A DNA stretch of 64,000 bases, taken from NCBI GenBank assembly GCA_964016885.1, contig OZ024742.1, positions 282,038,001 to 282,102,000 of the forward strand, given 5' to 3'. The notes below the pieces were generated by a model, which was not told the origin of the DNA, did no database searches, and saw only the letters and a list, made by a program, of their open reading frames with translations. Positions 7,625 to 54,590 of the stretch are shown here, one piece after another. The translations under genes and the position numbers were made by a program. Position 1 is the stretch's first letter; every line of letters starts with the position of its first letter. Source of the stretch: Eledone cirrhosa. Lineage: Eukaryota.

Positions 7625-8519
7625 GAGGTGTGTCAGAAAAGTTCCAGGGCTGATGACATAAAAGTTTTATTTCAAACCCGAACTTAGCACTAAGAGTTTT
7701 CTACTTCAAAGTAATTCCCCTGGAGTCTAATGCACTTTTCCATCCTTTTCTGCCACGCTTGCATGCACTCCTGGAAGGATTCTTCCGGGATTCTCACAAG
7801 TTTCGTCGTCACGGCCTTTTTGATGTCGTCCACGTCTTCAAAACGGGTCCCCTGCGGGTCGTACTCGAAGATCATGACTCATCACCGGTAAAGACTTCCC
7901 TAGCAAGTCTGGTTCGGTTTCAAGACGCTCGAGGATGTCCTGACACACTTGCATGCGTCGACCCTTCTGGTCATCGTTCAGCAGTTTTGGTACCATCTTC
8001 GCGCAGACTTTCCGCATGTCCAAATCTTCAGTGAGAATCTTCCAGACGCTGTCCTGATTCATGCCAATCTCATTTTCTATCAGTCGAACAGTCAGCCGAC
8101 GATCGCTACGCACCATCTGCCTGACGCGCTCAACGTTGACCTCAGTCCTGGTTGTTGAAGTCCCTCCGCTCCTGGGGTCATCTTCCACTTCCTCGTGTCC
8201 TTCTTTAACCTCTTGCGCCACTCAAAAAGACGTGAGCGTGACATCGTCTCATCTCCATACACTTGCTGCAGCGGAGTTTTTCCCAACCGTACCAGAAACT
8301 TCAAGTTTGTTCGCTGCTCTGTGCTCATTGCTTTACGACCTGAAACAGAGGACATGTATATAAAATTATGAGGAAAAAAGTTTGATCGCTGCAAAGAGCT
8401 AAGATTACAGTTACATACTCCAGGGGGATTACTTTGAAGGAGGAAACTCTTATTATGAAGTGTGGGTTTGAAATAAATCTTTTGTGACGTCAATATTGGA
8501 ACTTTTCTGACACACCTCG
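7624..8519 (-). mobile_element. Mariner (Tc1/mariner) DNA transposon, internally deleted
   Basis: 23-bp perfect TIRs cgaggtgtgtcagaaaagttcca (7624-7646 / 8497-8519), TA on both flanks, transposase remnants inside. Confidence 0.93.
7690..8328 (-). pseudogene. Mariner transposase pseudogene (frameshifts; most of the catalytic domain deleted)
   Basis: MSTEQRTNLKFLVRLGK..FEWRKR / EDDPRSG..DRRLTVR..MRKVCAKMVPKLL (WVPxxL motif) / TGDES..FEYDP joined directly to GTRFEDVDDIK..WQKRMEKCIRLQGNYFE. Confidence 0.9.
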
Positions 8520-9010: not shown

Positions 9011-9037
9011 CACGCATATATATATATATATGCATGA

Positions 9038-9908
9038 ATATTTTGTATGTCCAAAGAAATACAGTTTTAGGAAGCCGTAGCTATGCAAACACCGGGTGGC
9101 TAACGCCCTCTGGTGATGTCCAGCAGAAGCAATAGGGACAACCGTCTATGCATTTCATCCTTAACTGGCCTTCGTCAGGACGGTCCCTCCCATCATTTGC
9201 GACTGCTGGACTAGAAGACAGCTGAGAATATATACTTTTCTCGTCTGTGTAAATGAGGTGATTAATCTCATTTGCATATGAAGCTGCATAAGTTGGCTCA
9301 ACTTATAATAAAAAAGAAATAGGATTTCGCTTCAAGCATAGCTTTATACAATATGTATAAATATTTTGTATCTCCAAAGAAATACAGTTTTAGGAAGCCG
9401 TAGCGGTGGTAGGGACTGTCCTGACGAAGGCCAGTTAAGCCTGAAATGCATAGACGGTTGTCCCCCTTGCTTCTGCTGGATATCACCAGATGGCGTTAGC
9501 CCCCTGGTGTTTGCATAGTTACGGCTTCCTAAAACTGTATTTCTTTGGAGATACAAAATATTTATACATATTGTATAAAGCTATGCTTGAAGCGAAATCC
9601 TATTTCTTTTTTATTATAAGTTGAGCCAACTTATGCAGATTTATATGCAAATGAGATTAATCACCGCATTTACATAGACGAGAAAAGTATATATTCTTAG
9701 CTGTCTTCTAGTCCAGCAGTCGCAAATGATGGGAGGGACCAGTCTGACGAAGGCCAGTTAAGGATGAAATGCATAGACGGTTGTTCCTATTGCTTCTGCT
9801 GGACATCACCAGAGGGCGTTAGTCCCACCGGTGCTTGCGTAGCTACGGCTTCCTAAAACTGTATTTCTTTGGAGATACAAAAAGCTATGCTTGAAGCGAA
9901 ATCCTATT

Positions 9909-9913
<5 letters not shown>
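9038..9913. mobile_element. Family B retrozyme-like element: 323-bp monomer, tandem and head-to-head
   Basis: Period 323 (9038/9361; 9421/9744). Left arm 9038-9404 on minus, right arm 9405-9913 on plus; three HHR motifs; (TA)n flanks. Confidence 0.85.
9412..9464 (+). ncRNA. Type I hammerhead ribozyme (family B)
   Basis: gggac.tgtc-CTGACGA-aggc cagttaa gcct-GAAA-tgca-TA-gacgg..gtccc; helix III palindrome ATGCAT. Confidence 0.85.
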
Positions 9914-9983
<70 letters not shown>

Positions 9984-15292: not shown

Positions 15293-15787
15293 AGAAATAG
15301 GATTTCGCTTCAAGCATAGCTTTATACAAATATGTATAGAAATTTGGTATTTCTAAAGAAACGCTATGTTTACAGGAAACATTTAGGAAGTCGTAACTAT
15401 GCAAACACCGGGGCTAACGCCCTCAAAAGTGGTGTCCAGCAGAGGCAAGGGGGACAGCCGTCTATGCATTTCAGGCTTGACTGGCCTTCATCAGGACCTA
15501 TTATAAGTTGGGCCAACTTATGCAGCTTCATATGCAAATGAGATTAATCACCTCATTTACACAGACGAGAAAACTATATATTCTCGACTGTTCTCAACTC
15601 CAGCAGTTGCAAGCGGTGGGGGGGGGCGTCCTGATTAAGGCCAGTCAAGCCTGAAATGCATATACGGTTACCCGCCTTGCTTCTGCTGGACACCACCAGA
15701 GGGCGTTAGCCCCGGTGTTTGCATAGCTACACGGCTTCCTAAATGTTTCCTGTAAACATACCGCGTTTCTTTAGAAATACGAAATTA
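15293..15787. mobile_element. Family B (divergent subfamily) fold-back
   Basis: Homologous to 9038-9913. Minus-strand HHR with CTGATGA at ~15453-15498; plus-strand copy mutated (CTGATTA at 15631). Confidence 0.8.
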
Positions 15788-15789
15788 CT

Positions 15790-16304
15790 ATGCCGGTTCA
15801 GCAAACATTAGGTATTAGGATTGGTGCTCTGAAATAGCGATGTATACCTGAATGTATGTATAATATATTTGGCAATATACCGTATGTTTAATTAAAAACA
15901 TTTACAAGACCATATGCTATCAGTTTTCAAATATACTATACATACATTCATGTATACATCGCTATTTCAGAGCACCAATCCTAATATCTAATTTTTGCTG
16001 GACCGGCAATCGCTCTGTATAATCAGCTCCTGATTATTACTGGAATTCTATAAGAATCCAGCTTCTATAATTTTCGGCGGAAGCAGGGGAGTACGTGGCT
16101 CTGATGAACGCCGGCCAGCGTGAAACAAACTGTCAGCTTCTCTCCCTTCTTTCGCCGAAACGAAATAAGTGACACGGTCACTACTATAAAACTGATAGCG
16201 TATGGTCGTCTAAATGTTTTTAATTAAACATACGGTATATTGCCAAATATACTATACATACATACATGTATACATCGCTATTTCAGAGCACCAATCCTAA
16301 TACC
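15790..16304 (+). mobile_element. Family C1 retrozyme-like element (316-bp period, inverted 5' arm)
   Basis: caaatatactatacatac repeats at 15928 and 16244; 15790-15927 is an inverted copy; central HHR. Confidence 0.8.
16097..16138 (+). ncRNA. Type I hammerhead ribozyme (family C1)
   Basis: ggct-CTGATGA-acgc cggcca gcgt-GAAA-ca aac tg-TC-agct (GUC site), enclosed by a longer stem tttcggcggaag..ggggag / ctccc..tttcgccgaaa. Confidence 0.85.
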
Positions 16305-16338: not shown

Positions 16339-16409
16339 AGTTTCAGGAGATCCCGTTAAGGCTGAAAGAAACGATTCTTTGCTTAAACATTAATCTGTTA
16401 TTTTAATAA

Positions 16410-16410
<1 letters not shown>
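16339..16410 (+). mobile_element. Family E single arm
   Basis: Homologous to 40663-40735. Confidence 0.7.
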
Positions 16411-16501: not shown

Positions 16502-16910
16502 AATGATATTAAATAAATGGAAACTATATTTATAAAACCATATTTATTCTATTATATATATTTCAAGGGTACCAAAACTTTGGTACGCCATCATCAGATA
16601 AAATACAAAGTTTGTTTTATAAATGTTGACATAACCAAGAAAAGATACCTTAAGAAAAACTTGAACCGTTAAGGTATCTTTTCTTGGTTATGTCAACATT
16701 TATAATACACACTTTTTATTTTATCTGATGAGAGCGTACCAAGGTTTTGGTACACTTGAAATATATATAATAGAATAAATATGGTTTTATAAATATAGTT
16801 TCCATTTATTTAATATCATTGAATACTCCAGAAAATCTGTCGAGTGCTCTGAACCAGTTATACACATTTAGATTTGTTAAATTACCAACAACTTGAATAT
16901 CCCCTTTGCT
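16502..16910 (+). mobile_element. Family D fold-back element with tail
   Basis: Arms 16502-16653 and 16669-16820 are inverted; one-sided tail 16821-16910; TA flanks. Confidence 0.85.
16717..16777 (+). ncRNA. Type I hammerhead ribozyme (family D)
   Basis: tattttat-CTGATGA-gag.gtacc..ggtac.ctt-GAAA-tatata-TA-atagaata; helix III palindrome ATATATAT; mirror copy on the minus strand at ~16545-16605. Confidence 0.8.
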
Positions 16911-24881: not shown

Positions 24882-27488
<2,607 letters not shown>

Positions 27489-34030: not shown

Positions 34031-34049
34031 AAATATGGTATATATATAT

Positions 34050-34660
34050 ATGTATAAATATTTCGTATCTCCAAAGAAATACGGTTTTAGGAAGCCGTAG
34101 CTATGCAAACATCGAGGGTGCTAACGCCCTCTGGTGATGTCCAGCAAAAACAAGGGGCACAACCGTCTATGCATTTCAGGCTTAACTGGCCATCGTCAGG
34201 ACGTTCCCTCCCACTGCTTGAGACTGCTGGACTAGAAGACAGCTGAGAATATATACTTTTCTTGTCTGTGTAAATTAGGTGATTAATCTCATTTGCATAT
34301 GAAGCTGCATAAGTTGATTCAACTTATAATAGAAAGTTGAGCCAACTTATGCAGCTTCATATACAAATGAGATTAATCACCTCATTTACACAGACGAGAA
34401 ATCTATATATTCTCGCCTGTCTTCTAGTCCAGCAGTCTCAAGCAGTGGGAGGGACCGTCCTGACGATGGCCAGTTAAGCCTGAAATGCATAGACGGTTGT
34501 ACCGCTTGCTTCTGCTGTCCATCAACAGAGGGCGTTAGCCCCCCCCCCCCCCCCGGTATTTGCATAGCTACGGCTTCCTAAAACCGTATTTCTTTGGAGA
34601 TACGAAATATTTATACATATTGTATAAAGCTATGCTTGAAGCGAAATCTTATTTCTTTTC
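34050..34660. mobile_element. Family B fold-back with two mirror HHRs
   Basis: Left arm on minus to ~34330, right arm on plus. accgtc-CTGACGA..GAAA-tgca-TA-gacggt at 34454-34497; mirror at 34161-34206. Confidence 0.85.
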
Positions 34661-34679
34661 TATATATATATATATATAT

Positions 34680-36016
34680 GAATATAGACATAGAATATTC
34701 TCGAATATTCTGTATGTTTATAATAAACATTTTGAAGACCTAATCGCTATAGAATAGAATACGTCACGTATTACAATTAGATTCTCGATAAAAGCAAGGG
34801 AAGTAATCTACGCGTTTCATTCTTGTTAGAAATCATCAGGACTACATATCCAGTGCTTTTATCGAGAATGACACAGCTAGAGACTTATAGAATACTTAGC
34901 TGTGTACAGGAACTGGTTTGAAAGAGCGGTTGCCGGTCCGGCAGAAATTAGAAATTGGAATAAATGCTCTGAAATAGCGATATATATGTGAATATAGACA
35001 TAGAATATTCTCGAATATTCTGTATGTTTATAATAAACATTTTGAAGACCTAATCGCTATAGAATAGAATACGTCACGTATTACAATTAGATTCTCGATA
35101 AAAGCAAGGGAAGTAATCTACGCGTTTCATTCTTGTTAGAAATCATCAGGACTACATATCCAGTGCTTTTATCGAGAATGACACAGCTAGAGACTTATAG
35201 AATACTTAGCTGTGTACAGGAACTGGTTTGAAAGAGCGGTTGCCGGTCCGGCAGAAATTAGAAATTGGAATAAATGCTCTGAAATAGCGATATATATGTG
35301 AATATAGACATAGAATATTCTCGAATATTCTGTATGTTTATAATAAACATTTTGAAGACCTAATCGCTATAGAATAGAATACGTCACGTATTACAATTAG
35401 ATTCTCGATAAAAGCAAGGGAAGTAATCTACGCGTTTCATTCTTGTTAGAAATCATCAGGACTACATATCCAGTGCTTTTATCGAGAATGACGCAGCTAG
35501 AGACTTATAGAATACTTAGCTGTGTACAGGAACTGGTTTGAAAGAGCGGTTGCCGGTCCGGCAGAAATTAGAAATTGGAATAAATGCTCTGAAATAGCGA
35601 TATATATGTGAATATAGACATAGAATATTCTCGAATATTCTGTATGTTTATAATAAACATTTTGAAGACCTAATCGCTATAGAATAGAATACGTCACGTA
35701 TTACAATTAGATTCTCGATAAAAGCAAGGGAAGTAATCTACGCGTTTCATTCTTGTTAGAAATCATCAGGACTACATATCCAGTGCTTTTATCGTCATTC
35801 TCGATAAAAGCACTGGATATGTAGTCCTGATGATTTCTAACAAGAATGAAACGCGTAGATTACTTCCCTTGCTTTTATCGAGAATCTAATTGTAATACGT
35901 GACGTATTCTATTCTATAGCGATTAGGTCTTCAAAATGTTTATTATAAACATACAGAATATTCGAGAATATTCTATGTCTATATTCACATATATATCGCT
36001 ATTTCAGAGCATTTAT

Positions 36017-36022
<6 letters not shown>
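34680..36022. mobile_element. Family C2: 310-bp tandem array (3.6 near-identical units) plus inverted partial unit
   Basis: Units start at 34681, 34991, 35301 and 35611; inversion at ~35795; one HHR per unit; TA flanks. Confidence 0.9.
35821..35863 (+). ncRNA. Type I hammerhead (family C2); minus-strand copies at 34803-34845, 35113-35155, 35423-35465, 35733-35775
   Basis: gtagtc-CTGATGA-tttct aaca agaat-GAAA-cgcg-TA-gattac; palindromic ACGCGT; enclosed by attctcgataaaagca/tgcttttatcgagaat. Confidence 0.85.
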
Positions 36023-36062
<40 letters not shown>

Positions 36063-53156: not shown

Positions 53157-54352
53157 GTTTGTTTCTGTCTGTCACACATACAACTTATGGACACCCTGCT
53201 CAGTTTGTTTCTGTCTGTCACACATACAACTTATGGACACCCTGCTCAGTTTGTTTCTGTCTGTCACACATACAACTTATGGACACCCTGCTCAGTTTGT
53301 TTCTGTCTGTCACACATACAACTTATGGACACCCTGCTCAGTTTGTTTCTGTCTGTCACACATACAACTTATGGACACCCTGCTCAGTTTGTTTCTGTCT
53401 GTCACACATACAATTTATGGACACCCTGCTCAGTTTGTTTCTGTCTGTCACACATACAACTTATGGACACCCTGCTCAGTTTGTTTCTGTCTGTCTCACA
53501 TACAACTTATGAACACCCTGCTCAGTTTGTTTCTGTCTGTCTCACATACAACTTATGGACACCCTGCTCAGTTTGTTTCTGTCTGTCACACATACAACTT
53601 ATGGACACCCTGCTCAGTTTGTTTCTGTCTGTCACACATACAACTTATGAACACCCTGCTCAGTTTGTTTCTGTCTGTCACACATACAACTTATGGACAC
53701 CCTGCTCAGTTTGTTTCTGTCTGTCTCACATACAACTTATGAACACCCTGCTCAGTTTGTTTCTGTCTGTCTCACATACAACTTATGGACACCCTGCTCA
53801 GTTTGTTTCTGTCTGTCACACATACAATTTATGGACACCCTGCTCAGTTTGTTTCTGTCTGTCACACATACAACTTATGAACACCCTGCTCAGTTTGTTT
53901 CTGTCTGTCACACATACAACTTATGGACACCCTGCTCAGTTTGTTTCTGTCTGTCTCACATACAACTTATGAACACCCTGCTCAGTTTGTTTCTGTCTGT
54001 CTCACATACAACTTATGGACACCCTGCTCAGTTTGTTTCTGTCTGTCTCACATACAACTTATGGACACCCTGCTCAGTTTGTTTCTGTCTGTCACACATA
54101 CAACTTATGGACACCCTGCTCAGTTTGTTTCTGTCTGTCACACATACAACTTATGGACACCCTGCTCAGTTTGTTTCTGTCTGTCACACATACAACTTAT
54201 GGACACCCTGCTCAGTTTGTTTCTGTCTGTCACACATACAATTTATGGACACCCTGCTCAGTTTGTTTCTGTCTGTCACACATACAACTTATGGACACCC
54301 TGCTCAGTTTGTTTCTGTCTGTCTCACATACAACTTATGGACACCCTGCTCA
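53157..54352. repeat. Minisatellite, 26 x 46 bp
   Basis: Unit gtttgtttctgtctgtcacacatacaacttatggacaccctgctca; three recurring single-base variants. Confidence 0.97.
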
Positions 54353-54590
54353 GTTTGTTGTGCAGCCTGTTCGGATAGTTGTAACCTCACCTTTATGCAC
54401 GAAATTGCATTGGCTAAGGACTGACACATGAAGAGGGTAGATGCTTTTGTTCGTTCATCCTACTTTATGCTTTTTCGTTGGCAACACCCACACACACACG
54501 CACACAAATATACATGGGTGAATTGAAACAAACTTGTGCTGCTATATGGAATAGTTCTATTAATAAAATATATTTTGACTCTACATATAT

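Follow-up and report, generated by a model that had tools for sequence, protein, structure and literature searches.

Non-LTR retrozymes are described as dispersed tandem units of 150-450 bp, each with a type I hammerhead ribozyme (HHR), of low GC content and with neither coding capacity nor an LTR layout (PMC7229834; for the HHR, PMC4209133). They range from dimers to multimers, their transcripts self-cleave and occur as linear and circular monomer RNA, and their target-site duplications (TSDs), when present, are longer than 4 bp (PMC7229834). Multimeric cDNA templated by circular RNA is the published retrozyme model (PMC7229834, section 17; PMC7761336), and an origin of retrozymes from Penelope-like elements (PLEs) has already been argued (10.64898/2026.07.22.740005). 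Hallmarks of PLEs include an inverted, 5'-truncated copy, a tail of 30-40 bp at one end and targeting of TA (PMC8557442, PMC3846280). The purified protein of the PLE Poseidon, a predicted dimer, cleaves and extends both strands; synthesis begins at two internal positions of the RNA, and the interval between these corresponds to the tail (PMC11167929). Insertion by this protein in vitro takes unprocessed RNA as template and can dispense with HHR cleavage (PMC11167929). Tandem and inverted structures of PLEs have been described as unexplained (PMC8557442).

The element studied here, from Eledone cirrhosa, is a non-coding, HHR-bearing 310-nt repeat that sits in a TA microsatellite as two head-to-head multimer arms. 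It occupies positions 34680-36022 of the window, the whole 64,000-nt stretch of DNA analysed. By sequence criteria its family is a non-LTR retrozyme, a known kind of element: the dispersed tandem units fall within the described size range, each has a type I HHR, GC is low (106/310 in the unit), and there is neither coding capacity nor an LTR layout. No open reading frame (ORF) of at least 110 aa lies within 34680-36022, and so the unit has no reverse transcriptase (RT) or GIY-YIG ORF. TSDs cannot be read because the insertions lie within (TA)n. The metazoan non-LTR retrozymes of coral, mussel, axolotl (Rtz331 and Rtz353) and newt (satellite 2) share the low-GC tandem units of about 300 nt, the type I HHR, the thousands of copies and the lack of an ORF; expression and cleavage have been shown for them, whereas the present family is known from DNA (PMC7229834). 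Helix III here resembles that of HHR_Amex1, with one pair and a palindromic tetraloop, and the U.U of helix II resembles HHR_Amex2. PLEs (Hydra clade, PMC8557442; Poseidon PAc, PMC11167929) have in common with the family the inverted 5'-truncated copy, the 30-40-bp tail, TA targets and an HHR, as well as two internal RT start sites and, apparently, two-strand extension. Unlike PLEs, the unit lacks the RT and GIY-YIG ORF, its arms are multimers of a short unit rather than partial tandems of a 3-kb element, and it has no pLTR homology to the six PLE families tested. A two-arm layout, dual fixed start sites, (TA)n targeting and array-wide A>G changes were not found described for retrozymes in the literature passages covered; PMC7229834 uses none of the words 'inverted', 'rolling', 'opposite' and 'microsatellite'.

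In the assembly the left arm comprises 3.63 units of 310 nt, and its four units differ at one base; Tandem Repeats Finder (TRF) reports a period of 310, 3.6 copies and 99% matches at 34670-35794. The near-identical head-to-tail units that an earlier note on this DNA had described, the HHR in each of them (on the minus strand) and the flanking TA tracts are all borne out (Table 1). The 16-bp enclosing stem that it had placed around every HHR is present as well, except that the innermost HHR of the left arm keeps 11 of the 16 pairs because the arm stops at 35794. Numbering unit positions from the first base after the predicted cut, the RNA 3' end of the left arm faces outward at 129-139 (start site 1). 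The right arm is inverted, 229 nt long and 100% identical to the left-arm units. An inversion of the hairpin loop at unit positions 107-108 is private to this locus: it is present in all five passes, in both arms, and in no other of the examined loci.

Table 1. Features of the two-arm insertion and its flanks, in window coordinates.
Feature	Position	Strand	Basis or remark
(TA)n target tract, left	34661..34679		sequence; end of the adjoining family-C HHR palindrome
Left arm, 3.6 units of 310 nt	34680..35794	-	RNA of minus-strand sense
Type I hammerhead, predicted cut after 34809 (GUA)	34803..34845	-	descriptor and sub-threshold Rfam
16-bp enclosing stem around HHR, example (35164-35179 with 35091-35106)	35091..35179	-	folding
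Type I hammerhead, predicted cut after 35119	35113..35155	-	descriptor, fold and sub-threshold Rfam
Type I hammerhead, predicted cut after 35429	35423..35465	-	descriptor and sub-threshold Rfam
Sole unit-specific substitution, in unit 3	35493..35493		unit comparison
Type I hammerhead, innermost of left arm	35733..35775	-	enclosing stem reduced to 11 bp by the centre junction
Head-to-head centre junction	35794..35801		left arm stops at unit position 255, right arm begins at 247; 1-nt overlap
Right arm, 0.74 unit	35794..36022	+	RNA of plus-strand sense, its 3' end facing outward at unit position 165 (start site 2)
Type I hammerhead of right arm, predicted cut after 35857	35821..35863	+	descriptor and sub-threshold Rfam
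(TA)n target tract, right	36021..36062		TRF-type repeat call

The window contains further repeats. The studied array is inserted in the TA tract at the right end of a family-C element (34048-34659). Family C, also seen at 9011-9923 and 15293-15743, is a non-coding, HHR-bearing element with a TGCA helix III and an AUA site that forms head-to-head palindromes and short tandems, has two TA-joined end sites about 47 nt apart, and is weakly similar to the profile of the present family (A) and the older family B described below (E 1.5e-7 to 2e-5). Other HHR families, with a long helix II, occur at 16725 (+) and 31907 (-) and at L073:3340-3440, the 31907 type lying at the end of a Hydra-type PLE at L073. 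A very homogeneous 46-bp minisatellite (26 copies, 98% matches) occupies 53157-54359, and 7838-8400 holds fragments that we take to resemble a mariner-type transposase.

By the descriptor, the left arm has minus-strand type I HHR cores at 35769, 35459, 35149 and 34839, and the inverted right arm a plus-strand core at 35827. Each combines a 6-bp helix I with an internal loop, CUGAUGA, a U.U mismatch followed by a 4-bp helix II with a 4-6-nt loop 2, GAAA and a GUA site; helix III, of 1-2 bp, is a palindromic CGCG. In canonical metazoan type I HHRs, loops 1 and 2 make a tertiary contact. No match in the window array reached the gathering score in an Rfam search; Hammerhead_HH9 appeared with 19.2 bits (E 0.17, cut-off 52) at exactly the five expected places and strands. 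Rfam miRNA matches at the palindrome centres were generic hairpins below threshold and were set aside. The 116-nt region with the enclosing stem has a fold z of -4.19 (0/200 shuffles) and the circular monomer one of -4.2 against 100 shuffles; the stability of the 66-nt HHR alone is ordinary (z = 0.06). In the predicted ensemble of the circular monomer, helix I is formed (0.85-1.0) and helix II mostly unformed (about 0.15). Compared with family B, 7 of 32 HHR pairs are changed on both sides, including the core pair C3-G8 to U3-A8 (23 sequences), and 97.7% of cells pair in the A/B comparison (23 sequences, five family-B copies), the changes lying on essentially one branch and hence counting as about seven events, not 26. 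Judged by these features the HHR is of the weak kind, with its short palindromic helix III and the U.U at the base of helix II. Axolotl HHR monomers with such weak features showed 6% and 22% cleavage and were rescued in dimers (PMC7229834, section 15), and eight of nine Xenopus retrozyme dimers were without in vitro cleavage (10.64898/2026.07.22.740005).

Family B (about 350 nt; 4,392 candidates) is an older family that is 68% similar to the 310-nt unit and has the same layout and tail; copies lie at window 15815-16301, at L044:2238-2760 and at L077-L080. Many of them combine the U3-A8 core covariation with a longer helix III.

The array belongs to a young dispersed family of near-identical units of 310-312 nt. 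A tight HHR-motif pattern gave 18,241 matches (9,251 + 8,990) on many chromosomes of the 3-Gb genome and 0 in the control, and the 31 candidates of the first similarity search were a large undercount, biased to the window's allele at site 106. We examined 64 loci, 29 found by similarity, 17 taken in order along C1 and 18 chosen for rare alleles. A script scored 55 of them as minus-then-plus arm pairs with the RNA 3' ends outward and none of the 64 as a tail-to-tail pair; eight were single-armed (one cut by N; in L036 the second arm was too short for scoring), and L144 was left out of arm scoring since its stretch held a second insertion, the two being independent and 120 bp apart within one TA tract. 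Among the loci picked by similarity, 25 of 29 were two-armed and all 25 had one end at each start site, as had all 12 resolvable pairs among those taken in chromosome order. When the samples are pooled, 51 of 55 pairs (L084 included, despite its complex left end) have one outer end at about 129-139 and the other at 156-174, the two start sites being about 26-36 nt apart. The exceptions are L137, with an arm interrupted by other DNA, and L140, L142 and L145, in which both ends lie at one and the same start site. Since 55 of the 64 loci are head-to-head pairs, 51 of them with one outer end at each start site, the inverted partial unit that the earlier note had seen following the array is real, yet it is not an appendage: it is the short, independently primed arm of a standard two-arm insertion.

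Arm length averages 4.1 units (median 2.7, maximum 19), is correlated within loci (rho 0.37, p = 0.005) and reaches 19 + 10 units in young loci. Inner ends are scattered along the unit (chi-square p = 0.35), their number at the cut site being no significant pile-up (3/50, p = 0.26), and inner junctions mostly show overlaps of 1-8 nt and sometimes a few inserted bases. The insertions are flanked by (TA)n. In L1 twin priming, likewise, both target strands prime and the inversion is joined by microhomology; there the second primer uses variable internal sites and bounds the first cDNA, whereas here both starts are fixed, the template appears to be lapped many times and the position of the junction is free.

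The two arms of a locus agree closely. In 24 of 25 loci they show no difference at informative sites, the one mismatch being a 10-nt deletion, compared with 136 of 1,406 pairs of arms taken from different loci; in the positional sample the figures are 10 of 11 loci versus 78 of 421. In the two samples together, both arms thus carry one haplotype in 34 of 36 pairs, against 10-19% between loci. Altogether 36 haplotypes occur among 48 fully covered loci. In the 38 loci with at least six units, non-reference alleles are fixed in 93 cases, confined to a single unit in 59, present in all but one unit in two and intermediate in nine, of which two belong to a locus that is duplicated and a third is produced by the alignment. 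None of 48 minor variants is mirrored in the opposite arm. Crossings of the cut site (211) comprise 172 standard ones, 38 with a locus-wide 1-nt insertion and one with a substitution, and per-junction scars, that is added or lost bases, were found at 0 of the 211. Because the arms share a haplotype, variants are fixed or single, none is mirrored and the crossings are scarless, each insertion passed through one monomer sequence. The parent-daughter pairs found were confined to site 106, which changes recurrently.

At unit position 106 (window 35013 and equivalents), U and C replace each other repeatedly in a hairpin loop (UUCG versus CUCG), both array-wide and in single units; in the window's array this loop is inverted.

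All of the single-monomer evidence could also be accounted for by a linear monomer, or short oligomer, re-read through seamless template jumps while the cleaved HHR fold joins its ends, and this would require neither a covalent circle nor a ligase. We consider it unlikely, given the scarless crossings and the lack of an inner-end pile-up at the cut site. Changes of the junction base N17, moreover, are array-wide in each case (G in 6 arrays, U in 3) and not per pass, and the form found in abundance in other retrozymes is the circle (PMC7229834, section 17).

Array-wide changes are skewed towards A>G (23 events, versus 5 of T>C; p = 6.5e-5; 52 of 64 loci), counted with selected sites and 106-108 removed and with polarity set by majority rule; in loci not picked for A>G the excess is only 10 versus 5 alleles. 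Single-unit changes are symmetric (T>C 13, A>G 9), and an initial signal of RT-error strand bias among them vanished after removal of site 106. The 5' neighbour of the 23 A>G changes is U in 12, C in 9, A in 1 and G in 1, and additional rare A>G changes are concentrated in the loci with A5G or A17G (9 of 14, versus 6 of the remaining 38; p = 0.0014). Across the genome, 8 arrays have A5G in all their units and 6 have A17G, the change at the cut-site base. These arrays are mostly on different backgrounds, L136 and L138 being related; by parsimony, position 5 requires 5 separate origins and position 310 requires 8. ADAR editing is known to avoid a 5' G and to produce clustered edits. Because 5'-G is avoided and A>G changes cluster per locus, the array-wide changes are probably ADAR edits on one RNA monomer, the low 5'-A count fitting less well; an edit could reach every unit of both arms only from one edited monomer as the source. 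Structure selection is partly expected to contribute to the skew, A-U pairs being kept as G.U. Hammerheads follow the NUH rule and should cut poorly at GUG, which is the cut site of six arrays; editing after ligation would explain them.

An argument for selection on the HHR core from missing mutants was dropped as a stand-alone argument. Among core adenines, A13 showed 3 singles, A14G 0 and A6 16 units, none with a full array, and a tolerant control site, an unpaired U, likewise had 0 full arrays and 6 singles.

Alternatively, an array already present might give a long linear transcript, uncleaved or cleaved in part, that serves as the template, the HHR being incidental. Such a transcript would suit the weak HHR, the existence of GUG arrays and the use of unprocessed RNA in PLE insertion in vitro (PMC11167929), and at L131 a run of three A6G units spans both arms, a pattern that fits a multimer template copied by L1-style twin priming. 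It could not, however, fix new or edited bases in all units of both arms on many backgrounds, nor does it fit the absence of mirrored minor variants; its arms would also shrink each generation, yet young loci reach the lengths given above. As the general template we judge it improbable, and for a minority of loci it may apply.

A few loci are mosaic. At site 188 in the right arm of L142 and site 106 in L031, alleles alternate with a period of 2, as a dimer circle would give, which suggests either such a circle or a DNA duplication. In L132 a variant recurs at an interval of 6 units, and in L136 a single A stands among five G; the mosaic loci suggest occasional multimer templates or later DNA change. 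At L133 (G000:C1:56257000-56266500) the entire two-arm insertion is duplicated about 3 kb apart.

The period-2 and 6-unit patterns and the duplicated locus indicate that some change at the DNA level does occur, and local expansion at the DNA level is the model favoured in the discussion of 10.64898/2026.07.22.740005. Here a monomer or short insertion would have grown later by unequal crossover, slippage, conversion or rolling of circular DNA. Such expansion is also compatible with the A>G skew if a single edited monomer was inserted first, since such a monomer, later expanded as DNA, would look similar; a second arm could alternatively stem from cDNA fold-back, which is length-feasible in 22 of 25 loci. 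Neither process is at all likely to have produced the family. Both inverted arms are multimeric and correlated in length, intermediate-frequency variants are rare, and fold-back is impossible in 3 of the 25 loci and would not place one end at each start site.

In each of three sequencing runs, one 340-nt contig corresponds to a 310-nt loop in the k-mer graph, a result that a tandem array and a circle give alike, and unit depth is very high in an independent run. No contig or long read was seen to span the locus, as an assembly artefact behind the homogeneity or unit number of the array would allow. Against such an artefact stand this depth and, across the 64 loci, private haplotypes, single-unit variants and stereotyped ends, and we regard it as hardly credible.

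Hydra-clade PLEs are abundant in the genome, with 61,540 candidates for the family of a window fragment and intact ORFs of 713, 714 and 719 aa in three families; RWR, DKT and CxCX5C motifs are present in the family inspected. The two Hydra families checked have two fixed TA-joined end sites, in one of them at 168-170 (21 ends) and 258-259 (20 ends). The retrozyme insertions, for their part, show the PLE-type features of an inverted head-to-head copy, two start sites with one per end, and a (TA)n bias like that of Hydra, Naiad and Neptune. No pLTR homologous to the 310-nt unit was found by blastn or nhmmer in six Hydra-type families, among the top copies of 61,540-89,186 candidates. Because none of the tested families shares sequence with the unit, it is the architecture that points to a PLE as the likely partner.

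The window fragment, at 24914-27190, is a truncated and broken Hydra-clade PLE in TA that retains the C-terminal part of the RT, CxCX5C and GIY-YIG; Pfam did not recognise the Hydra ORF pieces in the window. We rejected it as a sequence-matched partner since it lacks pLTR homology to the unit. Its family includes intact 713-aa copies and is very greatly expanded for a clade of which few families have been described. The pLTR of this family contains an HHR-like fold in which CAGAAGA replaces CUGANGA (U4 to A), at L066:2023-2130 (minus strand) and window ~16340-16410; read by eye and missed by the descriptor, it has a U.U at helix II and a long helix III and lies about 20 nt upstream of one start site. 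Three Hydra families (5' regions of L101, L125 and L126), as well as family A (unit positions 141-154) and family B, have a short hairpin, GCU...AGAGC(AC), next to the start sites or in the interval that separates them; seen by eye, it is a possible shared RT-recognition element.

We consider it probable that a Hydra-type PLE protein generated the family by copying a small RNA circle in rolling fashion, through target-primed reverse transcription on both strands. An older array would be transcribed, and its HHRs, which probably pair into dimers by way of the palindromic CGCG of helix III, would free monomers that are ligated into circles, some of which would acquire A-to-I edits; the GUG arrays require, in this model, an origin after ligation. 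A PLE protein, likely a dimer, would nick both (TA)n strands, as the in vitro Poseidon data and the intact Hydra-clade elements suggest. Synthesis would then start at the two fixed internal sites, one for each end, in keeping with the pattern of outer ends, and a circle can serve as template because internal initiation needs no RNA 3' end. Each RT would travel around the template 0.2-19 times, and the two cDNAs would stop at scattered positions and be joined end to end, mostly through the short overlaps seen at the inner junctions. The earlier note had read the array as a retrozyme formed by rolling reverse transcription of a 310-nt circle; retrozyme identity and rolling reverse transcription of a monomer of about 310 nt remain the best reading, now backed by the family-wide data, and it is the circle that we infer. 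More tentatively, and with rather less confidence than doubt, we propose that some 2,000 loci, a number extrapolated from the motif matches, are fossil rolling-circle read-outs, each of one RNA circle lapped by a PLE RT dimer from two fixed sites, with ADAR edits and junction changes stamped into both arms.

The movement of retrozymes through circles copied by a PLE RT has hitherto been a proposal without a mechanistic record. In this family, the DNA of thousands of young insertions gives access to priming sites, lap numbers and template variants, and as far as sequence can tell the family offers unusually clear genomic evidence for rolling, two-strand reverse transcription. It connects the two-strand, two-site initiation of PLEs in vitro to retrozymes, and, for direct assays, it provides both a minimal 310-nt substrate and intact candidate enzymes. 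If they are editing, the array-wide A>G changes would be a rare instance in which edits made in RNA have entered the genome. If the rolling-circle read-out is true, it would give genomic proof of circular RNA as the retrotransposition intermediate, RNA editing would drive how the sequence of a mobile element evolves in the germline, and the pLTRs of PLEs, where inverted or in partial tandem, would arise in the same way.
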